DNA of 64,000 nt from Candidatus Omnitrophota bacterium. GTDB lineage: Bacteria > Omnitrophota > Gorgyraeia > Gygaellales > Profunditerraquicolaceae. Shown one piece after another: positions 21,462 through 61,900 of the stretch. Every line of letters starts with the position of its first letter. Within the stretch, counting starts at the first letter, position 1. The stretch covers positions 81,977 to 145,976 of the forward strand of contig JAKLGJ010000002.1 of the NCBI GenBank assembly GCA_022710715.1. The letters are read 5' to 3'. The translations under genes and the position numbers were made by a program. Under the pieces are notes generated by a model that was not told the origin of the DNA, ran no database searches, and saw only the letters and a program-made list of their open reading frames with translations.

Positions 21462-24305
21462 TTAGAAGTATTGGGTTATTCCCACCCACAGGCGGGTATC
21501 TTCTCGAGTCTCATGCAGCGCCCTGGCCGCATCCAGCCGAACCACCAGTTTTTCCAGAGGGCCGGCAAGGTCGAAATGGAAGCGCATGCCGAAACCGGCG
21601 TCTTTCTTGAACGCGGCGGCGGAAAAATCCGAGTACCAGGCTTTGCCGGCATCAAAAAAGAGCACTCCCTGTATTTTACTTAAACGCAGGATATTGTCCA
21701 GAAAATACCAACCCAGCTCATCGCGCAACGGGAAACGGTATTCCGCGCTTCCCAGCATCATGCGCGCACCGGGCAACGTCTTGCCGGCGTAACCGCGCAA
21801 TCCATCAGCGCCGCCGATCTCGAAAAGGTTTTTGTCCGCATGCGCTCCCCAGCCCGTTTTGCCGCGCACGGCAAGCACGTGCTGCTGCCGCTCGAGCACA
21901 ACGCAATAGCGCTGCAACTCCGCACTGGTCCGCCAGAACGCCTGGGTCCCTCCCAGGAAGTGACCGGCTGATTCCACGACGTGAATAAAACGCCAGCCGT
22001 ACTGCGGATCGCCGTACGGGCCAAAACGGCCCAGAGACCCGGCAAGCCCCAGGATCGCCTCGTCTTTCCTGCGGTAATGCTGGTTACGAATATCCTCTCT
22101 GCCGTTTAAACCCGGGCCGGTGTCGAATTTCTGATCGCGGATCAGGTAGAGGCTGATATGATCATTCACCCCGAACAAGCCGTAATTCGCCGGCCAGAGT
22201 TCTTTTCTGAAGTAAAGCTTGCCGCCGGCCACATCGTGACCGCGCTTGCTCGATTCGTAATCGAAAATCTCGAAACCCGCGGCTTGCTGTTTATTCCCCA
22301 GATGAGAAAGTTCATACCCCAGCACCGAATCCACGGCTTTGCCGTTAAAATCATACTGCGAGCTTATCCGCATCAGCGCATCAAACGGCTTCTGGACCGA
22401 AGCGGCTGCGCCCAGCGCAGCGCCTCCCACCGTCGGGCCGCATACCGCATTATATGAATCCCGGGGCAAAAGTACCGGCAATTCATAGGCAAAGAAATAC
22501 CAGGGCACCGGTTTGAAAGTTTTCCTGGCCGGCCAGTGATTATTGGTGCGGTCTATATCCAGCATGACGGCCTGTTCCGCGTCGACGTCCACGCGCACCA
22601 CTTTCTTCCCCGCGGCGACGGGAATAACGTGCACAGCCCCCCTGCCGTCCCAGTCATCGACCAGGCTCGACCCGTCGGCATAAGCGATCCGGGTCCGGAC
22701 CGGGATCTCCAGCGCCCCCTTGTTGCCGATCGCCACTTCTCCCGCCCCCACCCGCTTAACCACAAAATCACATTGTTTGCCGGTGCGCAGCCACTGATCA
22801 AAGAATGACGACAGGTCCTGACCGGCTTCCTCGCCGGCAATGCGGGCAAAGGTATCCACCGAAATGGTGCGAAAAGCGAATTCACGGGTATAACGCGCGA
22901 CGATACGGTCGAACACCTCGCGCCCCAGCTGTTTCTCAAGCATCCAGAGAATCGCAGCTCCCTTGCCGTAGGCCAGCGCAAAAATCGATGACGGTTCCCT
23001 GAAACTGGACAATTCGCCGATAACCGGACGGTCGTAGCCGCTTTTAGCCAGGTAGAGATACCGGGTGACCATGGAATCGCGAAAAGTAAAATTGGGAACC
23101 AGCCGACGCAGCAGGGGCGGCAGATCCATAACCCCGGCATTCTCGCCATACGTGTGCTCAAGGTATCGCAGAACCCAGTAGGAATTCATCCCTTCATCCA
23201 TGAACATCTCACGGTACTCGTCGGAACCGACGATGTTGTAAAACCACTGATGGCTGGTCTCATGAGAAACCAGGAAATCGAAATAGCGGTTCAGAAAATG
23301 CGGCAACCGGTAGAACCGGGTGTCGATAAAGATGAGCCCCGAAGACTGGTCTCCCCCGAATCCCAGGTAGCTGGGCACGACATGGAATTCTTTGTACGGA
23401 TAGGGGCCGAATCGCTGTTGATGGAACCGGATCAACCCGGCGGCGTGGCGAGCGGCGCGTCCGGCCGCTTCTTTGTTGCCGTCGACATAGTACGCGTTGA
23501 TCCGGATGCCGTCCTGTTCGAGAGAGACGGCCTCGAATGCACTGGAAATCCCCAGCCCCAGATCGCGCATGGGGGCCGCGCTTTCTAAAAACAATTCCTG
23601 CGTTCCGTCCGGCAGACGCTTCAGCGTTTTAAGTGCGCAGCCGGAAACCAGCGTGTATTCCTGCGGTAGACGGGCTTTCAGACGATACCGCGCCGCTTCG
23701 CTGAAGAAAGGCTGATGATAGATGTAGAACGGATAGCGGTGCCAGCCCTGCTTGTCCAGAACGCACAGCATGGGATACCAGCGGGTCAGCGTCGTGATCT
23801 GCCTGTGCCAGCCGAAACGGCCATAGCAATGAGGGATAGCAACCTGATAGGCAAGCGTGACCTCCGTGGCTTTGCCCGGCGCCAGCGCCGCGGGAAGAAT
23901 AATCTTGAGCAGCGTCTGATCCTGGCCTTCGATGCTATAATCGAGCGGATGCTGCGCCGCGCTCACTTGAAGAATCCGCAGATCTCCGCTCTGGAATCCT
24001 TCCGGATACGGATTGACTTTAAAGTAGCCGGCGTACCGGCTCATAAAGCGGATTTCCTGCGGCGAATAACGACGATGCGGATAGATATGAAAATAAAGCT
24101 CGCGGACAGGCTGATCGGAATTGTTGGTGAAGCTGACGCGCTGCTGCGCCTCGATACGGTGGCGGACGGGATCAAAAGAAGCCTCAATATCGTACTGCGG
24201 CTCTCCGGCAGCGAATGCCCCGGCAGGAAGCAGTACGGCGCAGCCGCAAAAAGCAGCCCATATGATACAAACGGACGGGATTATACGCGTGTAAAAGTTT
24301 CTCAC
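21462..24305 (-). CDS. secreted M1-family zinc metallopeptidase fused to a C-terminal Omp85/BamA-type outer-membrane beta-barrel (type Vd-like autotransporter architecture)
   Basis: Signal peptide (IIPSVCIIWAAFCGCAVLLPAGAFA). HEXXH-x18-E zincin site (HETSHQWFYNIVGSDEYREMFMDEGMNSYW). C-terminal ~330 aa carries Omp85-barrel motifs (GGADGLRGYAGKTL, AEYRFPL, FFDAGKAW, GFGMRFHFDLAGPLEKLVVRLDAA) and ends in aromatic ...GITQYF. Confidence 0.7.
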   Translation of the reverse strand: MRNFYTRIIPSVCIIWAAFCGCAVLLPAGAFAAGEPQYDIEASFDPVRHRIEAQQRVSFTNNSDQPVRELYFHIYPHRRYSPQEIRFMSRYAGYFKVNPYPEGFQSGDLRILQVSAAQHPLDYSIEGQDQTLLKIILPAALAPGKATEVTLAYQVAIPHCYGRFGWHRQITTLTRWYPMLCVLDKQGWHRYPFYIYHQPFFSEAARYRLKARLPQEYTLVSGCALKTLKRLPDGTQELFLESAAPMRDLGLGISSAFEAVSLEQDGIRINAYYVDGNKEAAGRAARHAAGLIRFHQQRFGPYPYKEFHVVPSYLGFGGDQSSGLIFIDTRFYRLPHFLNRYFDFLVSHETSHQWFYNIVGSDEYREMFMDEGMNSYWVLRYLEHTYGENAGVMDLPPLLRRLVPNFTFRDSMVTRYLYLAKSGYDRPVIGELSSFREPSSIFALAYGKGAAILWMLEKQLGREVFDRIVARYTREFAFRTISVDTFARIAGEEAGQDLSSFFDQWLRTGKQCDFVVKRVGAGEVAIGNKGALEIPVRTRIAYADGSSLVDDWDGRGAVHVIPVAAGKKVVRVDVDAEQAVMLDIDRTNNHWPARKTFKPVPWYFFAYELPVLLPRDSYNAVCGPTVGGAALGAAASVQKPFDALMRISSQYDFNGKAVDSVLGYELSHLGNKQQAAGFEIFDYESSKRGHDVAGGKLYFRKELWPANYGLFGVNDHISLYLIRDQKFDTGPGLNGREDIRNQHYRRKDEAILGLAGSLGRFGPYGDPQYGWRFIHVVESAGHFLGGTQAFWRTSAELQRYCVVLERQQHVLAVRGKTGWGAHADKNLFEIGGADGLRGYAGKTLPGARMMLGSAEYRFPLRDELGWYFLDNILRLSKIQGVLFFDAGKAWYSDFSAAAFKKDAGFGMRFHFDLAGPLEKLVVRLDAARALHETREDTRLWVGITQYF

Positions 24306-24943
24306 ATTATTCCTTTAAGAGGACAGCGAGCGCATCCGGGATTGCGCTTGCGGCAATAATCCTTGCCCAGGCGGACCAGCAGGGCATGATATTCGTTGAA
24401 CAGCTTCGCCTCGCGCGGCAAGCCGCGCATACAGAATGCCTGAATCCGGTCATACGCCGCATCCACGGCAATCAGGTCGTGGCGGGCAAATATCCTGCGG
24501 GTATAGCCATCGACCACAAATAGCGGCTTGTTCAGCGCAAACAATAGTATCGAATCGGCCGTCTCCGGACCGATGCCGTTGACGTTCAACAACTGCCGGC
24601 GCAGCGTCGATGTCGTGACCGCGGCAAGCGCGCGCAGGCCAGTTCCGCAATCCGGTCCGAGAAACGCCAGGAAATGCCGCAGGCGACGGGCCTTGACCGC
24701 ATAGCACCCTGCGGGGCGGATCACAGCCGCAAGCTTCTTGTCGCTGACTGCGAACATCCGGCGCGGCGTAAGCAGTCGGTATTCCCGCAGGCGACGGATG
24801 GCTTTCTCGACATTTACCCAGCTCGTATTCTGGGTCAGGATCGCGCCGACGCTGACCTCAAAAGGCGTTTCCGCCGGCCACCAGTGTTGCGGGCCGAAAT
24901 ACCGGTACAGCAATCGATAGATCTGCAAAACGCCAGCAGCCAT
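24302..24943 (-). CDS. HhH-GPD superfamily base-excision DNA glycosylase (endonuclease III-like)
   Basis: Helix-hairpin-helix LLNVNGIGPETADSILLFA, a catalytic Asp-containing loop, C-terminal Cys cluster (CRKRNPGCARCPL); 213 aa. Confidence 0.7.
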   Translation of the reverse strand: MAAGVLQIYRLLYRYFGPQHWWPAETPFEVSVGAILTQNTSWVNVEKAIRRLREYRLLTPRRMFAVSDKKLAAVIRPAGCYAVKARRLRHFLAFLGPDCGTGLRALAAVTTSTLRRQLLNVNGIGPETADSILLFALNKPLFVVDGYTRRIFARHDLIAVDAAYDRIQAFCMRGLPREAKLFNEYHALLVRLGKDYCRKRNPGCARCPLKGIM

Positions 24944-24959
24944 GCGCCATCGCTACCGT

Positions 24960-26912
24960 TTATTCTTTGAAAACCAGCGGGTTGTAATTATAGTAGGCAA
25001 AGATGGTATACGCCGTTCCGGAAACAGAACCGGTGCTCTTGCCTTGAGGCGTCATCCAGCCATGCCCGGTATCGACCACTTCCTGGCTGGCATACGGCAA
25101 ACATCCCTCTCCCTGGCCTGTCGGAGAAGGGCTGCTGATGATCATCGTGCACAAATCCGCCAGATACTCGTCTGCTTTCGACTCGTAGAGCCGGGCTTTT
25201 GACGTCATGTTCTGACGGTGATAGTATGCGGCCATGATGCGCAGCGACAGCACCATCTGCGCGGTCCATTCCGTAGAAATAATGCCCCCCCTGGCCACAT
25301 GCCGCTGCGGAGCGAAATCGAATCCCCTGATCGAAACTTTCTCTTTGCCGGACAGCGTCTGCTCTATGGTCACCGCGCAATTCTCTTCGGCGAATTCCAC
25401 GATTTTGTCGGGGTTCATGCCGAGTTCGTTCAGCTTCTCCGGGCCGAGAGCGGCGATAGACCAGGCATAGGTATCCGTGGCGATCGTCGAATCCCCTTTG
25501 CCGCGTTTGATCGGGATTTCAGACTCATCATACGAATGCCGCATCAACCAGTCCAGGACTTTGTTCCGGGCATCAAGATAAACCGGCTTGCCGGTCAACT
25601 TATAAAGCATATGGAAGAACGCATAGGCATCCAGATTGTGCTCGGTAGCAAACCAGTTCACGTCCGGTCCTCCCCGCACTCCGCCTTCCGGATCCTGCGC
25701 CTGCAGATCCATGATTTTCCGGGCTATCTCTTCGGCCAGCACAAGGTATTTTGCGTCCTGCGCCTTGCGCACGTAGTGAACCAGAGCCATGCCGACCCAG
25801 AGATTCGGACCGCTGTGCACGATATATTCGGCGGGGGCGCCGTCATTGACATAATAGGCGTTCACGAACAGACCGTTGGACCGCTTGGCTTTCTTGACGA
25901 AGAAATCCAGTATTTTCCTGGCTCGCTCGAAATCCGAGAAGAATATGTGCGCTTGCGCCACCAGCGCCTGATCGTAAATGAACGCCCAGCCCTTAACATC
26001 CTTATCCCCCTCAAAGCTCATCACCAGGCCGGTGCGCGGATTCTGATGCACGGTCAGCCACTTATACATCCTGTCGAAGTTCGCCTGTTCCAGCACGGTC
26101 TTTTTCTGATCCAGCCGCAGCAGTTCTTCGGTTACCACGCTCTCTTTATGCTGCAGAGCGATCAATTGCTCCTGGAACGCCGCCTTGTCCCGGGTCAGCG
26201 CATCGATCATGCCGTTGAGTTCGCTTACCCGGCCTGCGGCGCGCACTTCTTCCTGCTTGACCTTTTCCGCCAGAAGCTTTTTCTCATCCTCGATGGTCTG
26301 TATGCGCAACTGCAACGCCTGAATATTTAACTGCAGATCGTCTTTTTCCCTGTTGATCTGTTTGATCTTGTTCTTCGCGGTATTGGATTCCCGTAATATC
26401 TGCAACAGTTGTTTGACCAGCTGCCGGTTGCCTTCCACCAGCTTCATGTTCACATACCCGTTGAATCCGATACCGGCCGCCAGGATCAGGATAAGACTTA
26501 TGATCGCCGGCACGAACAACCGTTTGGTCCAGGCATAGCGGATGATCCGCTGCTGGCCTCTGGGATCGACCATCTCGTAGGTCAAGCCGACGGAAAATGT
26601 TTCTTCTTCCTGCGCAGCGGCACGCGTCCAGGCGATCTTGGCGCTGGCGCTGACCGCCGGACGGTTCAGGGGCATGGTGATCTTCAGCGCGATCACTGCC
26701 TGACGCGATTCGATCAAGCTGACAATCTCCGGCTTGAGCTGATGCACATCCAGCAGAATCCCGCCGTTACCCACGTTATGGGTGAATCCCTGGATCCAAT
26801 CGGACAGCGGATGCGCGCCATCGGGACTCATCAACCTGAAGAGCACCGGGAACACTGAATCCAACCTGATATACTGCCTGCGTTCGTCCGGACGTTGGTT
26901 GTTATGGATCAT
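24960..26912 (-). CDS. PilZ domain / transmembrane / coiled-coil protein with C-terminal (alpha/alpha)6 glycoside-hydrolase-like domain
   Basis: N-terminal PilZ motifs (RRQYIRL ... NVGNGGILL), one TM segment (VPAIISLILILAAGIGF), ~120 aa of heptad-rich coiled coil, then a ~380-aa domain with a six-hairpin-glycosidase-like pattern of aromatic/acidic residues. Confidence 0.55.
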   Translation of the reverse strand: MIHNNQRPDERRQYIRLDSVFPVLFRLMSPDGAHPLSDWIQGFTHNVGNGGILLDVHQLKPEIVSLIESRQAVIALKITMPLNRPAVSASAKIAWTRAAAQEEETFSVGLTYEMVDPRGQQRIIRYAWTKRLFVPAIISLILILAAGIGFNGYVNMKLVEGNRQLVKQLLQILRESNTAKNKIKQINREKDDLQLNIQALQLRIQTIEDEKKLLAEKVKQEEVRAAGRVSELNGMIDALTRDKAAFQEQLIALQHKESVVTEELLRLDQKKTVLEQANFDRMYKWLTVHQNPRTGLVMSFEGDKDVKGWAFIYDQALVAQAHIFFSDFERARKILDFFVKKAKRSNGLFVNAYYVNDGAPAEYIVHSGPNLWVGMALVHYVRKAQDAKYLVLAEEIARKIMDLQAQDPEGGVRGGPDVNWFATEHNLDAYAFFHMLYKLTGKPVYLDARNKVLDWLMRHSYDESEIPIKRGKGDSTIATDTYAWSIAALGPEKLNELGMNPDKIVEFAEENCAVTIEQTLSGKEKVSIRGFDFAPQRHVARGGIISTEWTAQMVLSLRIMAAYYHRQNMTSKARLYESKADEYLADLCTMIISSPSPTGQGEGCLPYASQEVVDTGHGWMTPQGKSTGSVSGTAYTIFAYYNYNPLVFKE

Positions 26913-29272
26913 CGCCGCGTCCTTTCTAAGATAATCCGCTGTTTGTTCTTCTTGGCCAGCGATTCAAAAAAACGTTTGAATTCCGCATATTCGGCCCGCA
27001 TGACCTTGTCTTTTTTCATTTCGACCGTCTGTTTAAAGCGAATCCGGCTGCCCGTGTGGTCGCAGGTGGCGGTAAACTTCATCCAGGGCGAATCTTCATA
27101 AACCGGCTCGGGCAGGAAAAATGGTTTGTATCCCGCCGGAAGCGCAATGGTATACTCGATCAGCCGTTGTTCGAGGAAACCAAAATCGATGGGATACCGA
27201 CGCAGATCCTTGGCTACCAACGTTTTATCCAGCACTGCCAGCTGCGGCGCGATGCGGAACGCGCCGGAAGCGATCAGGAATTCCGGTCCGCTGAAATCGT
27301 AACGCAGTACAACCGGCTTCTGCAACAACTCCAGGTTTAAAGCATCGTACCGGCTCGCGCGCGCGCCGATGGAAAGATCCTGCAGGTTGGAATTGATGGT
27401 ATCCTGGACTTCTTCGGGCATGGAATAGAGCAGCCAGTAACGTTGCGATTGATCGAAGATACCCTTGGTGATCACGGTTTTCTCCCCCGTGATCGTCTCA
27501 TCGGGTTGCATGCGGATGGTTACTGCCACAGAGGCCTGATTGTGTTCAGGCGGGAAGAGCGGCGTTGTCTCGATGGCAAAACCGTTCTCCTTGATCACCA
27601 GCACATGGCGATTCTGATCTCCGTCGGGTAGATCGCCGAACGCGCAGGTTTCCGCGGTCGGATCCACGAATACCGGTTTGCCGTCAAGCTCAACCGCGGC
27701 GATGGCGTGGTTGAACATCATCGAGGGAAAATCCGGCTGGAGATCGAAAATGTCCCTCGTGGGAATGAGCACCGGCCAGGCGGTGAGTCCTGCTTCGCGC
27801 ATCATGGTTACCAGGAGAATAGCCTGATCTTTACAATCGCCGTATTTGTTCTTAAAAATATCTGCCGCCTGATGCGGCTCATAGCCGGCCTGGCCGTATT
27901 CTACGGCGACATAGCGGATCTTCTGGGCGCAGAAAGCATGGACCGCCTGGGCTTTGGCCAGCGGCGTAGCCGCCGCTGCGGTCAACTCTCTGACTTTCGA
28001 CTTGATCGCCGCGTCCGCGGCGATCTTCTCCCTGGCCAACGGCCACCACCAATCGTAGATGGACTGCCAGTCTTTAAAAGACGAAACGCTGAATGCCGGA
28101 TTGATCTCAACCACCGGCGGCATCTTGGATTCGGGAACAATCTGCGGAACATCCCTGAATTCCCACTGGTAAAGGCGGGCAGCGGGCTCTTCGGTGACCC
28201 GGGCCTGAAGGTTGGCGCCGAAATCATTATAGTCCGGGTTATACTTCTTGATATTCACCTGCCTGTCCCGGGGAGTCTGGAGGGTAAACCGCTGATAGAT
28301 CACCGGTTCCGAAGATTGCACGGTATACGGGATGACAAAATCATTTTTGTTGACCAGCTGGTAATGATGAATCCGCGCTTTGTATTCGATGGTGGCGCCT
28401 TCGACGATTTCCGGGAAAGAAATCAGCAGGACCCTGGCGTTGCTGTAGAGAGGAAAGTTGAGATACTTGGAAACGTCCCGGATATGGCGGCTGCCGACAT
28501 CCACGACCGTTCCATCCGGCTTGATCGTCCGGGCATACTCGACTTCCACTTTCTCGTCGGTGGAATCGTACTCGATCGGCATCTCGGCAAATCGCTCTTT
28601 CCCGCGCTCGTTAAGGATCTGGATCACAAAATGCATGGTCGTCAACGCTTTATTATCCGCGGTGATCTCTTCTTTCTCGTCCGCGAATAAAACCAGCGCG
28701 CCTGCCTGGGGATACCGGCTGGCCGGCGGTGCGGCGGCCAGGATTGCGGCAACCTGCGGGTCGATATCCCTGATCTGTACCGGAGTATGTTCTTTCCGGA
28801 TCTCCTGCTCCCGTTCGCGGGCAAGCCGGGCATAGTCTCCGGAACGGATCAATGCGTACTGTTGAAGCGCCTGATCAAAAAGATTGAGCTTCTCCTCGGT
28901 CAACCCGCGATAATACCGATAATCCGCGTTCTGCGATTCCCCGCCTTTGAACACTTCCAGCGCATCGGTATACCTGCCCAGGTGGAACAACGAGATACCC
29001 TGCAGCGTGCGCGCTTCCGGCAGGGCCGACTTGCCGAATTCCTCGACCGCACGCGCATATTCTCCTTTATCGAATAAAAGCTTGCCCAGCTCCAGGCGCA
29101 CCGAAGCGGAATCCCCGCCGCTGCGCAGAACGTTCTCATAGTCCCTGACTGCCGCGGCATAGTAATCGGCTGATTTTGCCGCGGCGGTGCGGGCCTGCTC
29201 AAGCGCATCCTTCTGCTGACATCCGGATAAACAGGCGCAGACGCACAGCGCCACTGCCGCGATCTTTCTCAT
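26909..29272 (-). CDS. TPR-repeat lipoprotein with DUF3857-like and transglutaminase-like cysteine-protease domains
   Basis: Lipobox (ACLSGC), N-terminal TPR-like helical repeats, transglutaminase core YGDCKDQAILLVTMMREAGL with downstream His/Asp; 787 aa. Confidence 0.65.
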   Translation of the reverse strand: MRKIAAVALCVCACLSGCQQKDALEQARTAAAKSADYYAAAVRDYENVLRSGGDSASVRLELGKLLFDKGEYARAVEEFGKSALPEARTLQGISLFHLGRYTDALEVFKGGESQNADYRYYRGLTEEKLNLFDQALQQYALIRSGDYARLAREREQEIRKEHTPVQIRDIDPQVAAILAAAPPASRYPQAGALVLFADEKEEITADNKALTTMHFVIQILNERGKERFAEMPIEYDSTDEKVEVEYARTIKPDGTVVDVGSRHIRDVSKYLNFPLYSNARVLLISFPEIVEGATIEYKARIHHYQLVNKNDFVIPYTVQSSEPVIYQRFTLQTPRDRQVNIKKYNPDYNDFGANLQARVTEEPAARLYQWEFRDVPQIVPESKMPPVVEINPAFSVSSFKDWQSIYDWWWPLAREKIAADAAIKSKVRELTAAAATPLAKAQAVHAFCAQKIRYVAVEYGQAGYEPHQAADIFKNKYGDCKDQAILLVTMMREAGLTAWPVLIPTRDIFDLQPDFPSMMFNHAIAAVELDGKPVFVDPTAETCAFGDLPDGDQNRHVLVIKENGFAIETTPLFPPEHNQASVAVTIRMQPDETITGEKTVITKGIFDQSQRYWLLYSMPEEVQDTINSNLQDLSIGARASRYDALNLELLQKPVVLRYDFSGPEFLIASGAFRIAPQLAVLDKTLVAKDLRRYPIDFGFLEQRLIEYTIALPAGYKPFFLPEPVYEDSPWMKFTATCDHTGSRIRFKQTVEMKKDKVMRAEYAEFKRFFESLAKKNKQRIILERTRR

Positions 29273-55760: not shown

Positions 55761-55912
55761 AAAAAAAAACCAACCGGTTAAGGTTGGTTACTGTGGTTCG
55801 CCTGAGATTGGTCCATTCTTTTTGTGCATGTATCCGCCTTGCCTGCCTCGCGGGGCAGGCTTAAAGGTTATCTCGATTTGTAATAGTGTAGCACAAAAAA
55901 GAGTTTTGTCAA
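55761..55912 (-). promoter_or_regulatory. pyr operon leader: sigma70-like promoter, putative PyrR-binding stem-loop and Rho-independent attenuator terminator
   Basis: On the minus strand: TTGACA (55912..55907), 16-nt spacer, TACACT (55890..55885). Stem-loop GCCTGCCCCGCGAGGCAGGCAAGG (about 55860..55837) resembles the PyrR binding loop (..GAGGC.GGCAAGG). Terminator AACCAACCTTAACCGGTTGGTT + T9 (55789..55761) ends 10 nt before the pyrR ATG. Confidence 0.5.
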
Positions 55913-58900
55913 GCCGGAATCTGCGTTTCCAGCCAGATCAGCGTTTCTTTCAGGGATGTATCTGTAGCAATCCCCTGGGTTTCCTCCATTTTCAACTCCT
56001 GGGCCAACAACGCTAAAATCTCCTGCCGGGCCTGCGCAATACGCCCCTGCTGATAACACTGCTGCACATAACAGATGATCTCCTGCGGCTTAAGCAACCT
56101 GCCCTGCGCCAGGATAACCTGCAAATCCTGCGCCTGTAGCGCTGCCGCCGGATTCAAGGCCACAGGAGCCGCGATCCAGGCAGGCGCCGGTGAGGAACCG
56201 GAAACCGGCAGGCTGCGCAGATCGATACCGCCGGTTTCATCCGGCTTATGCTCGCGCGCCGCCGGCTCGAGCGGCCGGGATTGCGCGGCCTGCTGCGCTT
56301 CGTACTCCCGCACCATGGCTTCAATCCCCCGTTCCTGCTCTTCGACATTCATCTGGATGGCTTTCATTCGTTCGCGGATAACCGCCAGGAGAGGAAGGAC
56401 CTGCTCCTGAAAAGCGGTTAACGATTCGGCGATCCGGCCGCTGTTTTTCACGTCCTGCGCGTCGCGATCCCAGAACGCCTTGAACAACAAGTGTTCCTGG
56501 CTGAAAGTAAGCTTTTGATTAAGGCATACTTCGCTTAAAAGCTTCAGGGCTTGCAGCCGTGTCAGCGGGCCTGCCGTTTCCAATAAAACAGCGAGTACCG
56601 ATAACGATTGGTCGATGATCATATTGTCCCAGCTTTTCAAGCCGGCGGCAAGATCAGACATCTGTTCAGCGGCGGCGGACAACTCGATTCCCGGCTTATC
56701 TTTCAAAGCGGTGATGATCAGGCTGCGCGCTTCCTGCGCCACCTCGCGCGAATTGATATACTCCAACCCCAGCGCTATAAGCATCTCCCTGGGCAGTTCT
56801 ATGCGCTGTTTCGTTTCCACCAGCTGCGCTTTCTCCCGTATTTCATGCAGGGCGATCGCTTTGTCTAAAGCCCGGCCCGGCCGTTCAAGATCATGCAATG
56901 CGGCTTTCAATTTCATCGCCTCGACCGTTCCCGAGACCTCCCGGCCGAAATTGTCGATGATCTCGATCAACCGCTGTGCTGTGCCGCCGTCGCCGGCGAT
57001 CACTTCCGCTTTGAATGACGGGATATCCTTCACCGCAGTCGCATCTCCTTCCTTGAGATCGAGCTCGCCGCCCAGGGAATCCAGGTAACGGGTCACCCGG
57101 CTGGGCGGGACTTTCAAATGGAACGATTCTCCTTTGGCCGCTCTGGCCAGGACCCTCACCCCCAGCGCGGCGGAAACTTCCCGGGTCATCGCGTTCGCTG
57201 CGGCATCCTGCACTTCTTTTAATTCATCGGTGTTAGTATAGACTTTTTCTTTCACATACACGAATTCCCCGCTTTCCGTAAACACTCCGTGCAGCAGAAC
57301 GAACCCGATCACGTTCTCTTCCCCGTCCCGCAGCAGGATGATCAATTCCTGGGCGTCGGAGATAAAACTCATCAGGCTGTGTTTGTAGTTGCCGGAATAA
57401 TCGCTTCTCTGGCAATTCCCCGAGCCGCTGGCGCCGTACCGGCCGATCTTCAGGGTGTCTTTAAGATCGAAGCTGATCTCCGCGGATACTTTTGCCGGGA
57501 CTGCCGCGGTCAGCGATTCGTCGGTCAAAGCTTTTTGCGCGGCAGCCAGCAATGATTTAAGCATTCCGCGGGACTCGTTAATGAAATTGCGCGGTTTTTC
57601 CCGCGCGGCGAATTCCTGATCCAGGACAGCCAGATCGTCGATCATCCGCGATACGGTCAATTCTTTTTGCACGGCAGGATCTCTTTCGTAGGATTCGTAG
57701 AGCCGGATGATCTCCTGCCACTGCTCCCCGCGATCCATAGAAGCCAGGTTCTCGATCCGGCCGGCGATCTCCAGGACTTTTTGCACCAATATCCCATGAT
57801 CCTGCGCCTGCTGCCTGATCCGCTGCAGTTCCCGCAAGCGCCGCAGGGCTTCCCCCCGCGCCCGGTTCTCCCGTTTAGACAGCTTTTTCAGTCCCATTAA
57901 AACCTGGATATCCTTCTGATCGAGCGCCGCTTTCAACGCAGGACTTAATCCTGCCGGATCGGTTTTCTGCCCGGCCAGGAATTCGTCCGTTTCCTGCTCC
58001 AGCACCGCGATCCTGGCCTGATACGCTTTATCCGCTTCCGAAATCACCATTTCGCGCTCCGCGGAATGCTGCTGGTAATTTTGCATTGTGGTCTCGAAAT
58101 ATTGCCGGTACGCAGCGCGGTTGCTGAAATCTTCCTCGGCTTCGGCAGTCAATGATTCCAGATTCTCATAGGCGTCGCGCACCGCCTGCGGCGCCTGCGA
58201 CGCGGCATTGGCCTGGCTGCGCTTATAGTCCCGCACTCCCTGCCTGCCTCCGGTAAAATAAGCGATCACCAGGTCCCGCAGGATGGCGTAAGCCGCGGAT
58301 CTGCGGGGATAGTTCTGCTGGAAATTAAACATATCCATCATGAACTCGGTGTCCGCCAGAGCGGCCCGGGCGTCGGGATGAACCGGCCCCATCTCGAAAT
58401 CGAAGAACTTTTTATCCCCGATCCTGCTCTCCAGCCGGGAGATGAGCGCCGCGGAAAAATCGCCGGATTGCGCCGCGGCGTTGATTTCCTCGGCGGACAA
58501 TACTTTTTTCTGCTGCATCGCCGCAGCCGTAGCCAGGAAATTCAATCCGTCGACCAGGGCCTGGCCCTGCCCGGAAGATCTGCGGATGATCGTTTCCGCG
58601 GTTTCCCGGTATCGACTGTTGTCTTTCAACCAGTTCAGGGCCCGGAACAGGGCTACCCGGCGCTGATCATTGCCCCCCCTGATGGTTTCGACGATTTTAT
58701 CGGTGACCGCGGCATCGCTGAATCCCGCTCTCGAAAGGATATAGGCTTCGAAAACAGTCAGCCCCTGCACCGGCTCCTGGGACAAAAAGCCCTCGATCGG
58801 CTCCTTGAAGGTCGGGCTCATTGCGCCCAGAAGCCGCAATGACAAAGATTTTTCCCGGGCATTGATCTTCCCGGTCAGCCAGGCCAGCTCCACCAGGTCC

Positions 58901-61900
58901 TCCTTGCGCATTGACCAGCTCCAGGTGATTATTTCCAGCAAACGGCTTAAAGCTTCTCCTGCGGAAGCGCCGGGACGCAGCGAAGAGATCACCGCATTTG
59001 CCGCGGGCATATGTTCCGGGCTTACTGCCAGCCATTTCAAACTCTTATCGTAAAACTGCTTGCGCTCGACATCGTTGAGCGGCCGCAAAACCTCTCTCAA
59101 TACGGATTGGGCCTGCCCGGAAAATCCCAGGCTTAAAACGAATTCCAGGGCAAATCCCAGCTCGCGATTGGCAAAATCGAATTCCAGGATTTGATGCGCA
59201 AATTTGTTTGCCGGCGGGGAATAACGGAACACGTCGGTGTTGTCCGGGAGAGTCTTACTGGAAGCAATATCCGCGAGAATCGCCGCGACCTGCTCCTGCT
59301 CGTTTTCTTCGATCCGGCCTAATAAGAAAAGCAGCTCGCTCAAATAATTTTTCTTGAACCGGACAAGACAATCTCCCAGCGTGTCAAAAGCATTGGCCAG
59401 ATCCGCTTCCGGACGCAATTGAGTGATCAATGCGTTGAATATTTCGGCTTGTTCCGGATGCTGCCCGATTGCCAGGAATGCGACCCAGCATAAACCAGCC
59501 TGGTGATACGGCGATGATTTAGAACGCAAAGCTTGCCGGGCTTTGGCCCGGACCGCATCGGACAAAGGCAGATGAGCAAGCGTGAATTCCAGCCAGAATT
59601 GAAATTCCCGCTCTTGCGGCTGGAAAGTAAGAATTTCGCGCACCAGACGCTGGCGGTCGGCAACGGATTCCCTGCGGATGACCCGGATAATTTGCCCGAA
59701 CACCAGACTATCCCCGTATTCATATCGTTGCGCATCCTCGTCGGGCATTTCTCCCAACAGAATGAGCATGCGGAACCAGGATTCATGATGATCCGCGTCC
59801 ATTTCCAGCAAATCCTCATAATCAACAGACAGGCCGTCAACAATGTTGCCCAGGTCCCGCGTTGATTGCCGGCCCAATATATTGACGATCTCCAGGGCCG
59901 GCGGATTACGCTGAAGCCAGATCAGGCTCTGGATCAATTCTTTTCTTTGCTGGCGGTTCCTGGCCTGGATCGACCGGACCAGATTGTCCCGGGCTTGCGC
60001 TTCAAGATCGATCGAGGACAACAAATAGGCTTCGACCAGGCTCACGCCTTGCGCGGTGACGCGCGCGGCCAGAACTGCGCCGCTTAACGGCGCGGGGAAC
60101 CAACGATCGTCTTTATACCCTTTGAATACAGCCAGCTGGCTCAACGTAAGCTTGATCTGCGTTTCCGGCATCCCGCGTCCGCGCAATGCCGCGGTCCAGG
60201 CTTCCCGGTCATAAAAAACCAGCCCCTGGATAAAATCCGGCTTATCCGCGGACAAACGCACCAGCGAATCTATCCCGCACTCCGCGATAAAAGGCTTAAG
60301 CCAGTCCATCCACCGCGCCAGCTCCTGCATTGAAGAGCTTCCTTTTAATTGCACAGCTTCGATAAAACCTGTTTGCATAAACAGCCGCTGGTATTCTTCG
60401 GCGGTTTTCATGATTGTATCGGAATAGCGATCGAAGTCGTTAAACTGCAGGGACCCGCCGTTTTCCAGAAGAACCAGCTGCCGGCTTTTCACCAGGATCC
60501 TGCCCGCAAATAGGATCGCGGTTGGCAGATTGTTCGCGGGAAGCGGCATACGGACCATTTCGTCGCCTGCCGCCATCCGCTCTTCCTGCGGCACATCCAG
60601 CAATGCCTGGATCAACGCATAGAGGAAACGCACATCGTAATCCTCTTTGCGGTTGTCCAGGAATTCGTACAACGCCGGCTCTATGCCCATGGCTTGAAGC
60701 TGCCGTAAAAATTCTTCGTTCGATTTCAACAGATCCGTGCCGGTCAGCCTGGGCAAAGCGGCTGTCGTCTGCCCCGCGGCGGGCATGGTCGTGGGTAACG
60801 AAAATCCTCCGGTCGTCCCGAAAGGCGCGGCGCCGCCGTCCGGACCGTCGCCGCTCATTACATCCGCAGTGGCAGTGGATACGCGGCGGGACTCTTCGCC
60901 TTTGATCGTACGCAGCAATGCTTCCAGAATGCCGCGCAATCTTCCTTTATTTACCGCCGCCTCGGACAAGGACAACTCGAATATTCCCGGCGCGGGAATA
61001 AATTTCGCCGGAGCTATTTCCATATCCGGAAGAATATGTTTTCCTGCGGATAGCTCTTCGGGCAGGGTGAAATCGGTTCTGGCGAGCAGCGCGGTTAACC
61101 CCGACAGATCGGAAGCGTGCGGATTTTTAAGCTGGATCAGTCGCGTATCAAGCAGCGCTCCCGTGTCGGGGAATGCCGCCCCGAAAAACGCCGTATCGAA
61201 AAATATCTTATCCGCCGATCCGATCCCGCTAAAAACAGGCAACGCTTCCTGCGACCACAGCGTCCAGCCCGGAGCGGTTTCTTGCGGCGCAGCCAGCACG
61301 CTAAAATCAATACCCTGGACGTTATTATCGGTAACCCCGAAGCTGCCGCCTTCGGCAAATCCGGAAGTGCCGCCGGCGGAGAATCCGCTTGACCCCTTTG
61401 CGCCCTGATTGCCTGCCGGGAGCTCCGGAGCATCGGGCAATTCGTCGAGCATTTCATCCGCGATCGCCGCCAGAATTTTTTTATAGAGCAGCCGGTTGAC
61501 AAAATATTCCGTCAGCAGTCGGGGATCCTGCTTCATCCGGCGGTTGCCCACGCTGATTTCCTGATTTCTATCCGCCCATTCCCGGCCGGCCCGTATTTTT
61601 TGCTCACCCAGCTGAATCCGGGCGAATTGAAATGTGCTCACGGGAACATCGGCATCCCGGTGCTGATGTTCCAGGTAAAATATAGGATATTCCTCAAAAC
61701 CCCCTTTAGTCGGGTCGAACAAAGGCGAGGTCGATCCCTGCTTGATCGAATCCAGTTGAGTATGCTTATCGAAAAGCTCGCGGTCAGGCGTTTCCCGGAA
61801 AAGATAGATATCCGCACCGGCAACCGTACCGTCGACCGAATCCGGAGAGAGACGCATCCCGCCGTATTTCGCGACCAGGATGATCGTACCCAGCAGCGAA

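Follow-up and report, generated by a model that had tools for sequence, protein, structure and literature searches.

Why should a zinc peptidase of the M1 family share a single polypeptide with an outer-membrane β-barrel of the Omp85 type, and on which side of the membrane would such an enzyme work? These questions are raised by a gene of an Omnitrophota bacterium lying on the minus strand of a 64,000-nucleotide stretch of DNA, the whole of which is hereafter called the window. A first-pass annotation of this DNA had proposed a single ORF of 947 aa with a signal peptide, an M1 zincin domain and a C-terminal barrel of about 330 aa, which it read as a type Vd-like autotransporter. The parts of the gene, in the order of the protein, are as follows.

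21462..24305, minus strand: whole gene, M1-peptidase/Omp85-barrel fusion, 947 aa (ORF list, Pfam)
24210..24305, minus strand: predicted signal peptide, residues 1-32 (MRNFYTR... AFA/AG), Sec/SPase I type, read from the sequence
23487..24197, minus strand: M1 domain I (N-terminal β domain), residues 37-273, all-β in the AlphaFold model
22788..23474, minus strand: M1 catalytic (thermolysin-like) domain, residues 278-506 (Pfam and model)
23340..23357, minus strand: GxMEN variant G317-G318-D-Q320-S-S322 (Glu to Gln), from pairwise alignment to 3cia
23193..23264, minus strand: zinc site HETSH-X18-E (H348, E349, H352, E371), invariant in 52/52 homologues
22968..22970, minus strand: Y446, catalytic-type M1 tyrosine (in AYGKG), invariant in 52/52 homologues
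22584..22766, minus strand: six-strand β-sandwich in the place of M1 domain III, residues 514-574 (both AlphaFold models)
22455..22583, minus strand: conserved linker without POTRA, residues 575-617 (D..LDIDRTNN.WP...KPVP.Y; Pfam, models)
21465..22454, minus strand: 16-strand Omp85-type β-barrel, residues 618-947, ending in a β-signal-like ...W.GI.Q.F
22161..22199, minus strand: long, conserved periplasmic turn T3 (strands 6-7), residues 703-715 (LWPANYGLFGVND)
21765..21845, minus strand: loop 6 (L6, strands 11-12), residues 821-847, with the signature L836-R837-G838-Y839 (conservation and model)
21645..21659, minus strand: strand-13 FxDxG motif (F883-F-D885-A-G887; conservation and model)

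One gene for an M1 peptidase and an Omp85 barrel

The ORF starts with GTG and runs uninterrupted to the stop at 21462-21464. It is matched by a database protein of 947 aa with 99% identity (P0001), and the best 120 homologue clusters listed are all 899-1003 aa long and contain both Pfam domains. The fusion is present as one ORF in 77 species-representative genomes, and every relative covering the linker and barrel is either fused or an N-truncated fragment, which settles in favour of the fusion the comparison with separate genes that the first-pass annotation had proposed. Two candidates for stand-alone barrels of the subfamily, P0136 and P0165, were rejected since both are N-terminally truncated gene calls. 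The full-length AlphaFold model (pLDDT 90.5, pTM 0.89) places M1 domains I-III, the linker and 16 strands in this order, and is unbroken through the junction (pLDDT 92-95 over residues 501-600). The notion that an M1 gene and a barrel-only Omp85 gene were joined by frameshift or misassembly, or that the C-terminal region is a soluble M1 domain such as the helical one of ERAP, can be dismissed in view of the same single ORF of ~900-1000 aa recurring in more than 120 clusters from independent assemblies and in the 77 species genomes, the confidently modelled junction and the 16-strand barrel that follows it. The M1-Omp85 fusion is far beyond chance. It is conserved throughout the phylum Omnitrophota and found also in Gemmataceae.

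The N-terminus combines a basic n-region, a hydrophobic core and the AFA/AG site; its homologues share a hydrophobic N-terminus with a small-x-small site immediately before the conserved mature start PRYEI, a pattern that upholds the proposed signal peptide. AlphaFold renders the region as a helix (4-30) of low pLDDT. Lipoprotein anchoring was rejected, for no conserved lipobox Cys was found among the homologues.

The peptidase part was rightly recognized as an M1 zincin. Pfam Peptidase_M1 covers residues 290-505 (E = 2.1e-22, 80 bits, cut-off 27.7), within a catalytic domain that is helical in the AlphaFold model with pLDDT mostly >90. Foldseek matches IRAP, ERAP1 and ERAP2 over ~580-600 columns (E about 1e-27 to 1e-24), an extent of alignment to four-domain M1 enzymes on which the equivalence of the sandwich at 514-574, the least conserved module of the protein, with domain III is based; PDB sequence matches to IRAP and ERAP2 begin at about residue 121. 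The HETSH motif (residues 348-352) is completed by E371 to give HEXXH-X18-E, invariant in the 52 homologues (43-62% identity) used for residue conservation. Equally invariant is Y446, which aligns with the Tyr of PYVKG in the cold-active aminopeptidase 3cia. Because H348, E349, H352, E371 and Y446 do not vary, the active site is, judging from its residues, intact and under selection for activity.

Of the features defining MEROPS family M1, the zinc motif, the catalytic Tyr and the β domain with thermolysin-like fold are all present, whereas the canonical GxMEN is absent: in pairwise alignment, GGDQS lies opposite the GGMEN of 3cia. Position 320 is Gln in 47 of the 52 homologues, Glu in 4 and Asn in 1, while distant active relatives keep G-x-N-E and many of them retain Glu at the GxMEN position. 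This Glu has been implicated in binding of the substrate N-terminus and in aminopeptidase specificity, and some M1 subgroups are already known to lack part of the motif (PMC2241622). The protein shares domains I-III, HEXXH-X18-E and the catalytic Tyr with four-domain M1 enzymes (ERAP1/2, IRAP, APN, PepN) and with the three-domain LTA4H and cold-active aminopeptidase, but differs from M1 aminopeptidases in carrying GGDQS in place of their Glu-containing motif and in being predicted to be exported and anchored in a membrane. Moreover, helical domain IV caps the active-site chamber in ordinary four-domain M1 enzymes, whereas a membrane barrel is found here instead. With Gln in place of the Glu that binds the substrate N-terminus, and with no domain IV to cap the active site, the fusion peptidase is unlikely to be a classical aminopeptidase; its substrates may be longer or unfolded, and its role may lie in processing or quality control of envelope proteins. 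Even so, aminopeptidase activity might be compatible with Gln at this position, and Glu is kept by 4 of the 52 close homologues. Names assigned automatically, "M1 family aminopeptidase" among them, are nonetheless probably misleading for proteins with an altered GxMEN site and a membrane anchor.

The C-terminal region is an Omp85 barrel, as first proposed. Pfam Omp85 (PF01103) matches residues 762-903 (E = 1.1e-12, 48.6 bits, cut-off 24), and the translation contains GGADGLRGY (831-839), AEYRFPL (854-860), FFDAGKAW (883-890) and the C-terminal ...TQYF. NCBIfam Omp85_fam (NF047779) aligns with residues 766-947 at 37.8 bits against a cut-off of 200, and the BamA equivalog (TIGR03303) is not matched, with 26.4 bits against 297. 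The predicted structure has the 16 strands anticipated for residues 618-947, and its fold matches the Omp85 type, with TamA, BamA and Sam50 scoring above FhaC; sequence similarity to the first three does not extend beyond the C-terminal half of the barrel. Residues L836, R837 and G838 are invariant, and the (V/I/L)RG(Y/F) motif between strands 11 and 12 conforms to canonical Omp85 topology, loop 6 occupying that same position in BamA and FhaC. F883 is also invariant, with D885 and G887 at least 90% conserved, and the FxDxG motif falls on strand 13 as modelled.

POTRA domains in the periplasm are considered characteristic of Omp85 proteins; BamA has five and TamA three. TamA, BamA and Sam50 all carry them, whereas the fusion protein has none: no POTRA family matched residues 505-947 in Pfam at E <= 10, and the β-α-α-β-β unit of a POTRA was not found in either model, in which residues 514-617 form seven short strands and two 4-residue helices. 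A POTRA hidden in the linker, where the first-pass annotation had thought one might be sought, is thereby ruled out. The linker itself (575-617) contains only the two 4-residue helices and one short strand, modelled with pLDDT 88-95, and D583, D585, N588, N589, W591 and P592 are at least 90% conserved in it. A course through the barrel lumen, like that of helix H1 in FhaC, is conceivable for it and would weigh against a periplasmic location of the peptidase.

Comparison with known enzyme-barrel proteins

The closest parallel is with the patatin-like proteins PlpD and FplA of "type Vd secretion", in which a signal peptide, an N-terminal hydrolase and a C-terminal 16-strand Omp85 barrel are arranged as in the fusion protein. 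The type Vd-like reading holds in this respect and fails in two others, for PlpD joins enzyme and barrel by a single POTRA that is lacking here, and its enzyme, like that of FplA, is a patatin-like lipase rather than an M1 zinc peptidase; no patatin domain was found in the fusion protein with Pfam or NCBIfam. The taxa also differ, those concerned here being Omnitrophota and Planctomycetota. Secretion of the N-terminal domain has, moreover, been disputed for PlpD itself (PMC11116518).

Among the ten Omp85 classes defined by Heinz and Lithgow in 2014, several are POTRA-less, including "WD40-Omp85", "Metallo" (PF00149) and "noNterm" (PMC4104836). These resemble the fusion protein in having a non-POTRA module before the barrel, but none of the ten carries Peptidase_M1, the "Metallo" class being defined by a different domain; neither PF00149 nor a WD40/TolB-like propeller was found in the fusion protein with Pfam. 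The nearest barrels outside the family (P0162, P0167 and P0171) have a TolB-like PD40 propeller and thus correspond to the WD40-Omp85 class, together with a Peptidase_MA_2 zincin that is absent from the published description of that class (PMC4104836). Searches of the literature for Omp85 with M1 aminopeptidase, and for Omnitrophota with Omp85, BamA or aminopeptidase, returned nothing describing the fusion protein. Within the known class of enzyme-barrel fusions, the protein represents a branch not previously described: a POTRA-less and widespread Omp85 architecture in which a complete M1 module is joined to a barrel that stands where the M1 capping domain would be. Omp85 proteins form the core of outer-membrane biogenesis, and their catalogue of enzyme fusions is hereby widened beyond lipases at a time when the concept of type Vd secretion is undergoing revision.

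Sidedness and possible functions of the peptidase

The results of our analysis are best explained, with fair probability, by a barrel-anchored periplasmic M1 peptidase, probably non-classical, that may participate in processing or quality control of the envelope. The precursor would be exported by Sec and its signal peptide cleaved; the barrel, which stands in the sequence where ordinary M1 enzymes have their helical domain IV, would be inserted by the BAM machinery of the cell via its C-terminal Phe β-signal and would fasten the module of M1 domains I-III to the outer membrane. Like the patatin domain of PlpD, for which such a position has been reported, the folded peptidase of ~60 kDa would then stay on a tether beneath the outer membrane, inside the periplasm, where it would cut envelope polypeptides or peptides.

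In an Omp85 barrel, strand 1 begins on the periplasmic side. The location of L6 between strands 11 and 12 and of FxDxG on strand 13 implies that the N-terminus of strand 1 has this orientation also in the fusion protein, and since no POTRA or known device for passenger export accompanies it, the peptidase most likely stays attached to the outer membrane on its periplasmic side and is not secreted. Turns T1, T3 and T4 on the periplasmic side combine length with conservation (0.71-0.81), whereas, L6 apart, the loops facing outward are short and vary more (0.54). A functional face on the periplasmic side would lead one to expect this asymmetry, which is modest and is seen in other outer-membrane proteins too. 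T3 has a mean top-residue frequency of 0.80, with L703, W704, P705 and N714 invariant, and its pLDDT of 66-85, the same in full-length and C-terminal models, is too moderate to demonstrate a rigid docking interface.

The alternative put forward at first, a type V-like autotransporter whose barrel exports its own M1 module for display or release and digestion of external peptides or surface proteins of hosts or prey, appears unlikely. We know of no Omp85 translocase that is devoid of POTRA, as the fusion is. The conserved lock of L6 and FxDxG is that of closed BamA/TamA-type barrels, TamA, BamA and Sam50 outscore FhaC, and the extracellular loops are short and poorly conserved. The passenger, an α/β zinc enzyme of 540 residues, is unlike the β-helical cargo of type V systems. 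For PlpD, the prototype, a report now places the enzyme domain in the periplasm and finds it not to be secreted, and it considers the passage of a folded domain through an Omp85 barrel unfavourable on energetic grounds (PMC11116518). The surface-display reading envisages the carriers as possibly host-dependent nanobacteria.

A further alternative emerges from distant relatives, sought by representative-protein search, in which HExxH and the catalytic Tyr have been lost. These catalytically dead homologues keep the whole M1-like module and the barrel, which argues, as far as sequence can tell, for a role in binding or handling over simple nutrient digestion, and which lends weight to the favoured reading as well. 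The protein might be a specialized Omp85 insertase or translocase whose barrel does the work of BamA or TamA for particular clients; its M1-like module would replace POTRA as the periplasmic client-binding unit, and active forms would trim or process clients during assembly or export. We consider this proposal quite unlikely. Its barrel retains all signature elements of working Omp85 machines, it is conserved across the phylum like a core envelope gene, and binding may be the function conserved in the dead forms. The class of its nearest other barrels, with MA-type peptidase and TolB-like propeller, was once compared to a BamA-BamB fusion (PMC4104836). Against this, the proposal is a matter of inference alone, the loci compared show no consistently linked client gene, and the strict conservation of catalytic residues in Omnitrophota and Gemmataceae is explained equally well by a plain tethered protease. 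Also, we know of no POTRA-less bacterial Omp85 machine that has been shown to act on clients. It is similarly improbable, in our estimate, that across a hitherto unrecognized, POTRA-less branch of the BamA superfamily spanning Omnitrophota, Gemmataceae and Nitrospirota the M1-like module is more than a tethered protease, being a client-handling unit that binds certain envelope or secreted polypeptides at the periplasmic mouth of the barrel; if so, active forms would process clients during insertion or export and dead forms would keep binding only. The sister group, with its catalytic residues lost and fold kept, provides a natural active/inactive pair for probing an enzyme module at an Omp85 barrel. 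Gemmataceae include cultivable species, so the questions of sidedness and substrate should be experimentally testable.

A possible role in quality control, and the gene neighbourhood

A protein comparable in function is BepA, a periplasmic M48 zinc metalloprotease which works at an Omp85 barrel in quality control of outer-membrane proteins (PMC13478230, PMC8423444). However, BepA is a separate soluble M48/TPR protein associated non-covalently with BamA, whereas the M1-type module is covalently attached to its own barrel; the likeness is a functional analogy only. The choice between periplasmic quality control and a surface effector role has previously been raised for POTRA-less Omp85 classes (PMC4104836).

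Neighbours of the fusion gene are mostly housekeeping genes that vary between clades and phyla, so that a quality-control role is weakly supported. As a clue to function, gene context is a weak lead. A barrel HMM found no second Omp85/BamA gene in the window or in the 77 flanks, and the loci of Planctomycetota and Nitrospirota have no neighbours in common with those of Omnitrophota. Omnitrophota loci follow two clade-specific gene orders, with a small TPR protein, an M48 protease and a PilZ-like protein of 650 aa recurring upstream. The M48 protease, a membrane protein of the Ste24 type, precedes the fusion gene on the same strand in 25 of the 77 Omnitrophota loci (within 150 bp in 13 of the 25), an adjacency that fits the theme of envelope proteolysis.

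The fused gene and its conservation

The M1-Omp85 protein, in which an M1 zinc peptidase module precedes a C-terminal Omp85 barrel, is encoded by the following feature of the window:

21462..24305, minus strand, uninterrupted ORF of 947 aa with a GTG start

Its translation contains the zinc motif HETSH at residues 348-352, with E371 18 residues downstream, together with the Omp85-type motifs GGADGLRGY (831-839), AEYRFPL (854-860), FFDAGKAW (883-890) and the C-terminal ...TQYF. In Pfam, Peptidase_M1 matches residues 290-505 (E = 2.1e-22) and Omp85 PF01103 residues 762-903 (E = 1.1e-12), both over the curated cut-offs; a sub-threshold NCBIfam match to Omp85_fam reaches the last residue, and PDB sequence matches are exclusively M1 aminopeptidases covering residues ~120-510 only. 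Translation and the two Pfam domains thus bear out the first-pass annotation, which had read a single ORF with all these motifs from the sequence alone.

Searched against 5.8 billion clustered proteins, the protein gave 281 matches, the best 120 of which are 899-1003 aa long and 43-99% identical to the query, carry both Pfam domains in each case and derive from Candidatus Omnitrophota wherever the source gives a name. Their automatic labels read either "M1 family aminopeptidase" or "BamA/TamA family outer membrane protein". The scan of species-representative genomes produced 77 loci with an identical single-ORF layout, labelled nearly all as Omnitrophota and for the remainder with generic bin labels (e.g. 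"uncultured Planctomycetales"). This conservation, both database-wide and across the 77 loci, indicates that the fused gene is old and conserved, and the source labels place the window in an Omnitrophota genome. The frameshift joining of two genes considered previously is not what we found, and the single ORF retained in the best 120 of 281 clusters and in the 77 loci leaves practically no room for an artefact of fusion.

Predicted structure, sidedness and catalysis

The AlphaFold2 model built from a 52-sequence alignment (mean pLDDT 90.5, pTM 0.89) divides the protein as follows.

Segments of M1-Omp85 in the AlphaFold2 model (residues)
4-30, signal-peptide helix
37-273, all-beta domain
278-506, helical catalytic domain
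514-574, six-strand beta-sandwich
575-617, linker of 43 residues, with two helices of 4 residues and one short strand as its only secondary structure
618-946, 16 beta-strands, in agreement with the 16-strand barrel anticipated earlier

Foldseek comparison with the PDB aligned ~580-600 columns to IRAP, ERAP1 and ERAP2 (E about 1e-27 to 1e-24), and therefore the N-terminal 575 residues correspond to M1 domains I-III; in the model, the helical domain IV of these enzymes is absent and the barrel takes its place. The profile of linker plus barrel reaches only Fusobacterium BamA (1.4e-8) and TamA (3e-5), in the C-terminal half only; this is a deeply divergent Omp85 branch. LRGY (836-839), in the loop connecting strand 11 to strand 12 (L6), and FxDxG (883-887), on strand 13, lie at the positions expected for the superfamily, the invariant barrel residues being L836, R837, G838, F883 and the terminal F947. 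A POTRA-like linker between peptidase and barrel, which the first-pass annotation had proposed to look for, was not found: residues 505-947 have no POTRA match in Pfam even at E <= 10, and the beta-alpha-alpha-beta-beta unit is absent from both the full-length and the separate C-terminal model.

The signal peptide noted earlier follows a Sec-type pattern in all family members, with a small-x-small site just ahead of the conserved PRYEI and no conserved lipobox cysteine across these peptides. Given 16 strands and an L6 that connects strands 11 and 12, strand 1 of the modelled barrel would begin on the periplasmic side, which would leave the M1 module in the periplasm by default. The periplasmic turns T1, T3 and T4 stand out by their length and conservation (top-residue frequency 0.71-0.81), whereas the extracellular loops except L6 are short and variable (0.54), a contrast that lends indirect support to a periplasmic M1 module. 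T3 (13 residues, 703-715; window 22161-22199; ELWPAxYG...NDH), where conservation within the barrel is highest, served as the search pattern for finding loci; its pLDDT is only moderate (66-85) in both models, and it could be a functional element that is mobile. The linker might instead be threaded through the barrel lumen.

The closest architectural precedent is PlpD, formerly classed as a type Vd autotransporter; more recently its patatin domain is reported to be periplasmic, and export of a folded domain by way of the barrel has been judged unfavourable (PMC11116518). From the type Vd-like autotransporter proposed earlier, only the PlpD-class layout stands, the two defining features (patatin domain and POTRA) being absent. 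We regard it as unlikely that the peptidase is displayed on the surface or released in type V-like fashion and favour, with somewhat better than even confidence, an outer-membrane-anchored, periplasm-facing zinc metallopeptidase, of which we infer both mechanism and sidedness. The barrel would serve at least as an anchor in place of M1 domain IV.

Catalysis of M1-Omp85 is under selection, since five residues do not vary among 52 homologues of 43-62% identity: H348, E349, H352, E371 and Y446, the last corresponding to the M1 catalytic-type tyrosine. The exopeptidase motif GxMEN has changed, with G317-G-D-Q320-S lying opposite G-G-M-E-N in the alignment to cold-active aminopeptidase 3cia; position 320 is Gln in 47 and Glu in 4 of the 52 homologues, and more distant active relatives keep G-x-N-E. 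The Glu and Asn of GxMEN are implicated in aminopeptidase specificity and in contact with the N-terminus of the substrate, and M1 subgroups that have lost part of the motif are on record (PMC2241622). Because GxMEN is altered and the capping domain IV missing, the name "M1 family aminopeptidase" seems doubtful for the window's clade; this enzyme is unlikely to be a classical aminopeptidase, and its substrates may be longer or unfolded envelope polypeptides.

Wider relatives and known systems

An exhaustive HMMER search with residues 510-947 against 1.84 billion representatives gave 486 matches. All proteins matching the whole linker and barrel are M1 fusions or truncated fragments thereof, which answers the earlier question of fused versus separate genes in relatives. 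Alignment of the family HMM to the representatives listed separates the 45 that cover both modules into three groups. The first comprises active forms, including the clade of the window and a 'HETCHQ / NGNEC' group (850-1058 aa) in which NGNEC occupies the GxMEN site and whose source names are Gemmataceae or Planctomycetota (P0157, P0181, P0182, P0196, P0209, P0210, P0156; locus L078, 7001-10060). The architecture, catalytically intact in these bacteria, is therefore not confined to Omnitrophota.

The second group (~14 representatives, 819-983 aa) has lost HExxH and kept the Omp85 motifs, with Arg at the Y446 position in most (P0158, P0159, P0173, P0184, P0185, P0188, P0189, P0203, P0205, P0239, P0255, P0259, P0265; locus L079, 7001-9649). 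In hhalign, 807 columns of P0159 align with the family profile (probability 100%, E = 1.8e-44), and in two clusters the members that bear names are Nitrospirota "BamA/TamA family" proteins. The proteins of this second group form a sister group of pseudo-peptidase/barrel fusions homologous over their whole length. The survival of such catalytically dead, otherwise complete homologues makes attractive a POTRA-less Omp85 machine in which the M1-like module handles clients, a reading that we consider quite improbable, preferring the anchored peptidase.

In the third group (P0162, P0167, P0171), three of the nearest barrels outside the family, Peptidase_MA_2 (HEFTH) is combined with a TolB-like PD40 propeller; Pfam matches Omp85 in P0167 and P0171, and P0162 was found through the barrel only (HMMER, residues 510-947). 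P0183, P0242, P0248, P0262 and P0266 were placed with them by length and partial HMM match only. The third group has its counterpart in Heinz & Lithgow's "WD40-Omp85" class, the 2014 description of which does not mention a zincin peptidase domain (PMC4104836). The same survey distinguished ten Omp85/TpsB subfamilies, none with an M1 domain, the POTRA-less ones being WD40, "Metallo" with PF00149 (termed 'metalloproteases') and noNterm (PMC4104836).

M1-Omp85 is assigned to the known kind of POTRA-less enzyme-Omp85 fusions. Barrel fold and motifs make it a member of the Omp85 superfamily, although one without POTRA; fold and zinc site place it in the M1 family, where it departs by a non-canonical GxMEN and a missing domain IV; and in layout it is like PlpD and type Vd systems, without their patatin domain and POTRA. 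PF00149 is the calcineurin-like metallophosphoesterase family, so that the 'Metallo' class may comprise no proteases. The literature searched contained no description of an M1-Omp85 protein; the fusion architecture is genuine, widespread and so far undescribed, and the existence of active as well as inactive forms makes the role of enzymes at Omp85 barrels testable.

Genomic neighbourhood

The gene lies within a long minus-strand run of the window.

Genes of the run, in run order
26909-29272, minus, predicted TPR/DUF3857/transglutaminase-like lipoprotein of 787 aa, with LSGC lipobox, TPR repeats and DUF3858
24960-26912, minus, 650-aa protein with weak N-terminal PilZ match, hydrophobic segment and long coiled coil
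24302-24943, minus, HhH-GPD glycosylase
then, minus, M1-Omp85 gene, ahead of the zinc-ribbon protein
then, minus, zinc-ribbon protein, M20 peptidase and PAC2 protein, in this order

The 650-aa protein, which also has weak glycosidase-like matches (GH76/GDE-like), is encoded upstream of M1-Omp85 on the same strand in 29 of the 77 Omnitrophota loci, often directly adjacent, and the 787-aa lipoprotein upstream of it is conserved in 24 loci. A Ste24-type M48 membrane protease lies upstream on the same strand in 25/77 loci (within 150 bp in 13), usually preceded by a small TPR protein that is itself upstream on the same strand in 40/77; M48, 650-aa protein and M1-Omp85 are consecutive in 10/77. Gene context hints only weakly at a theme of envelope proteolysis, because the window has no M48 homologue and the Planctomycetota and Nitrospirota loci have none of these Omnitrophota neighbours.

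The M48 zinc proteases have a five-helix membrane domain (L054, 4734-5972; L062, 3013-3939; and 23 more loci). In L078, the M1-Omp85 gene adjoins that of a 1672-aa Secretin-domain protein. The window also contains a giant ORF of 2663 aa (55909-63900, minus strand) with no Pfam match at E <= 1e-5; a preprint notes giant genes in Omnitrophota and predatory bacteria (10.1101/2023.11.21.568195).
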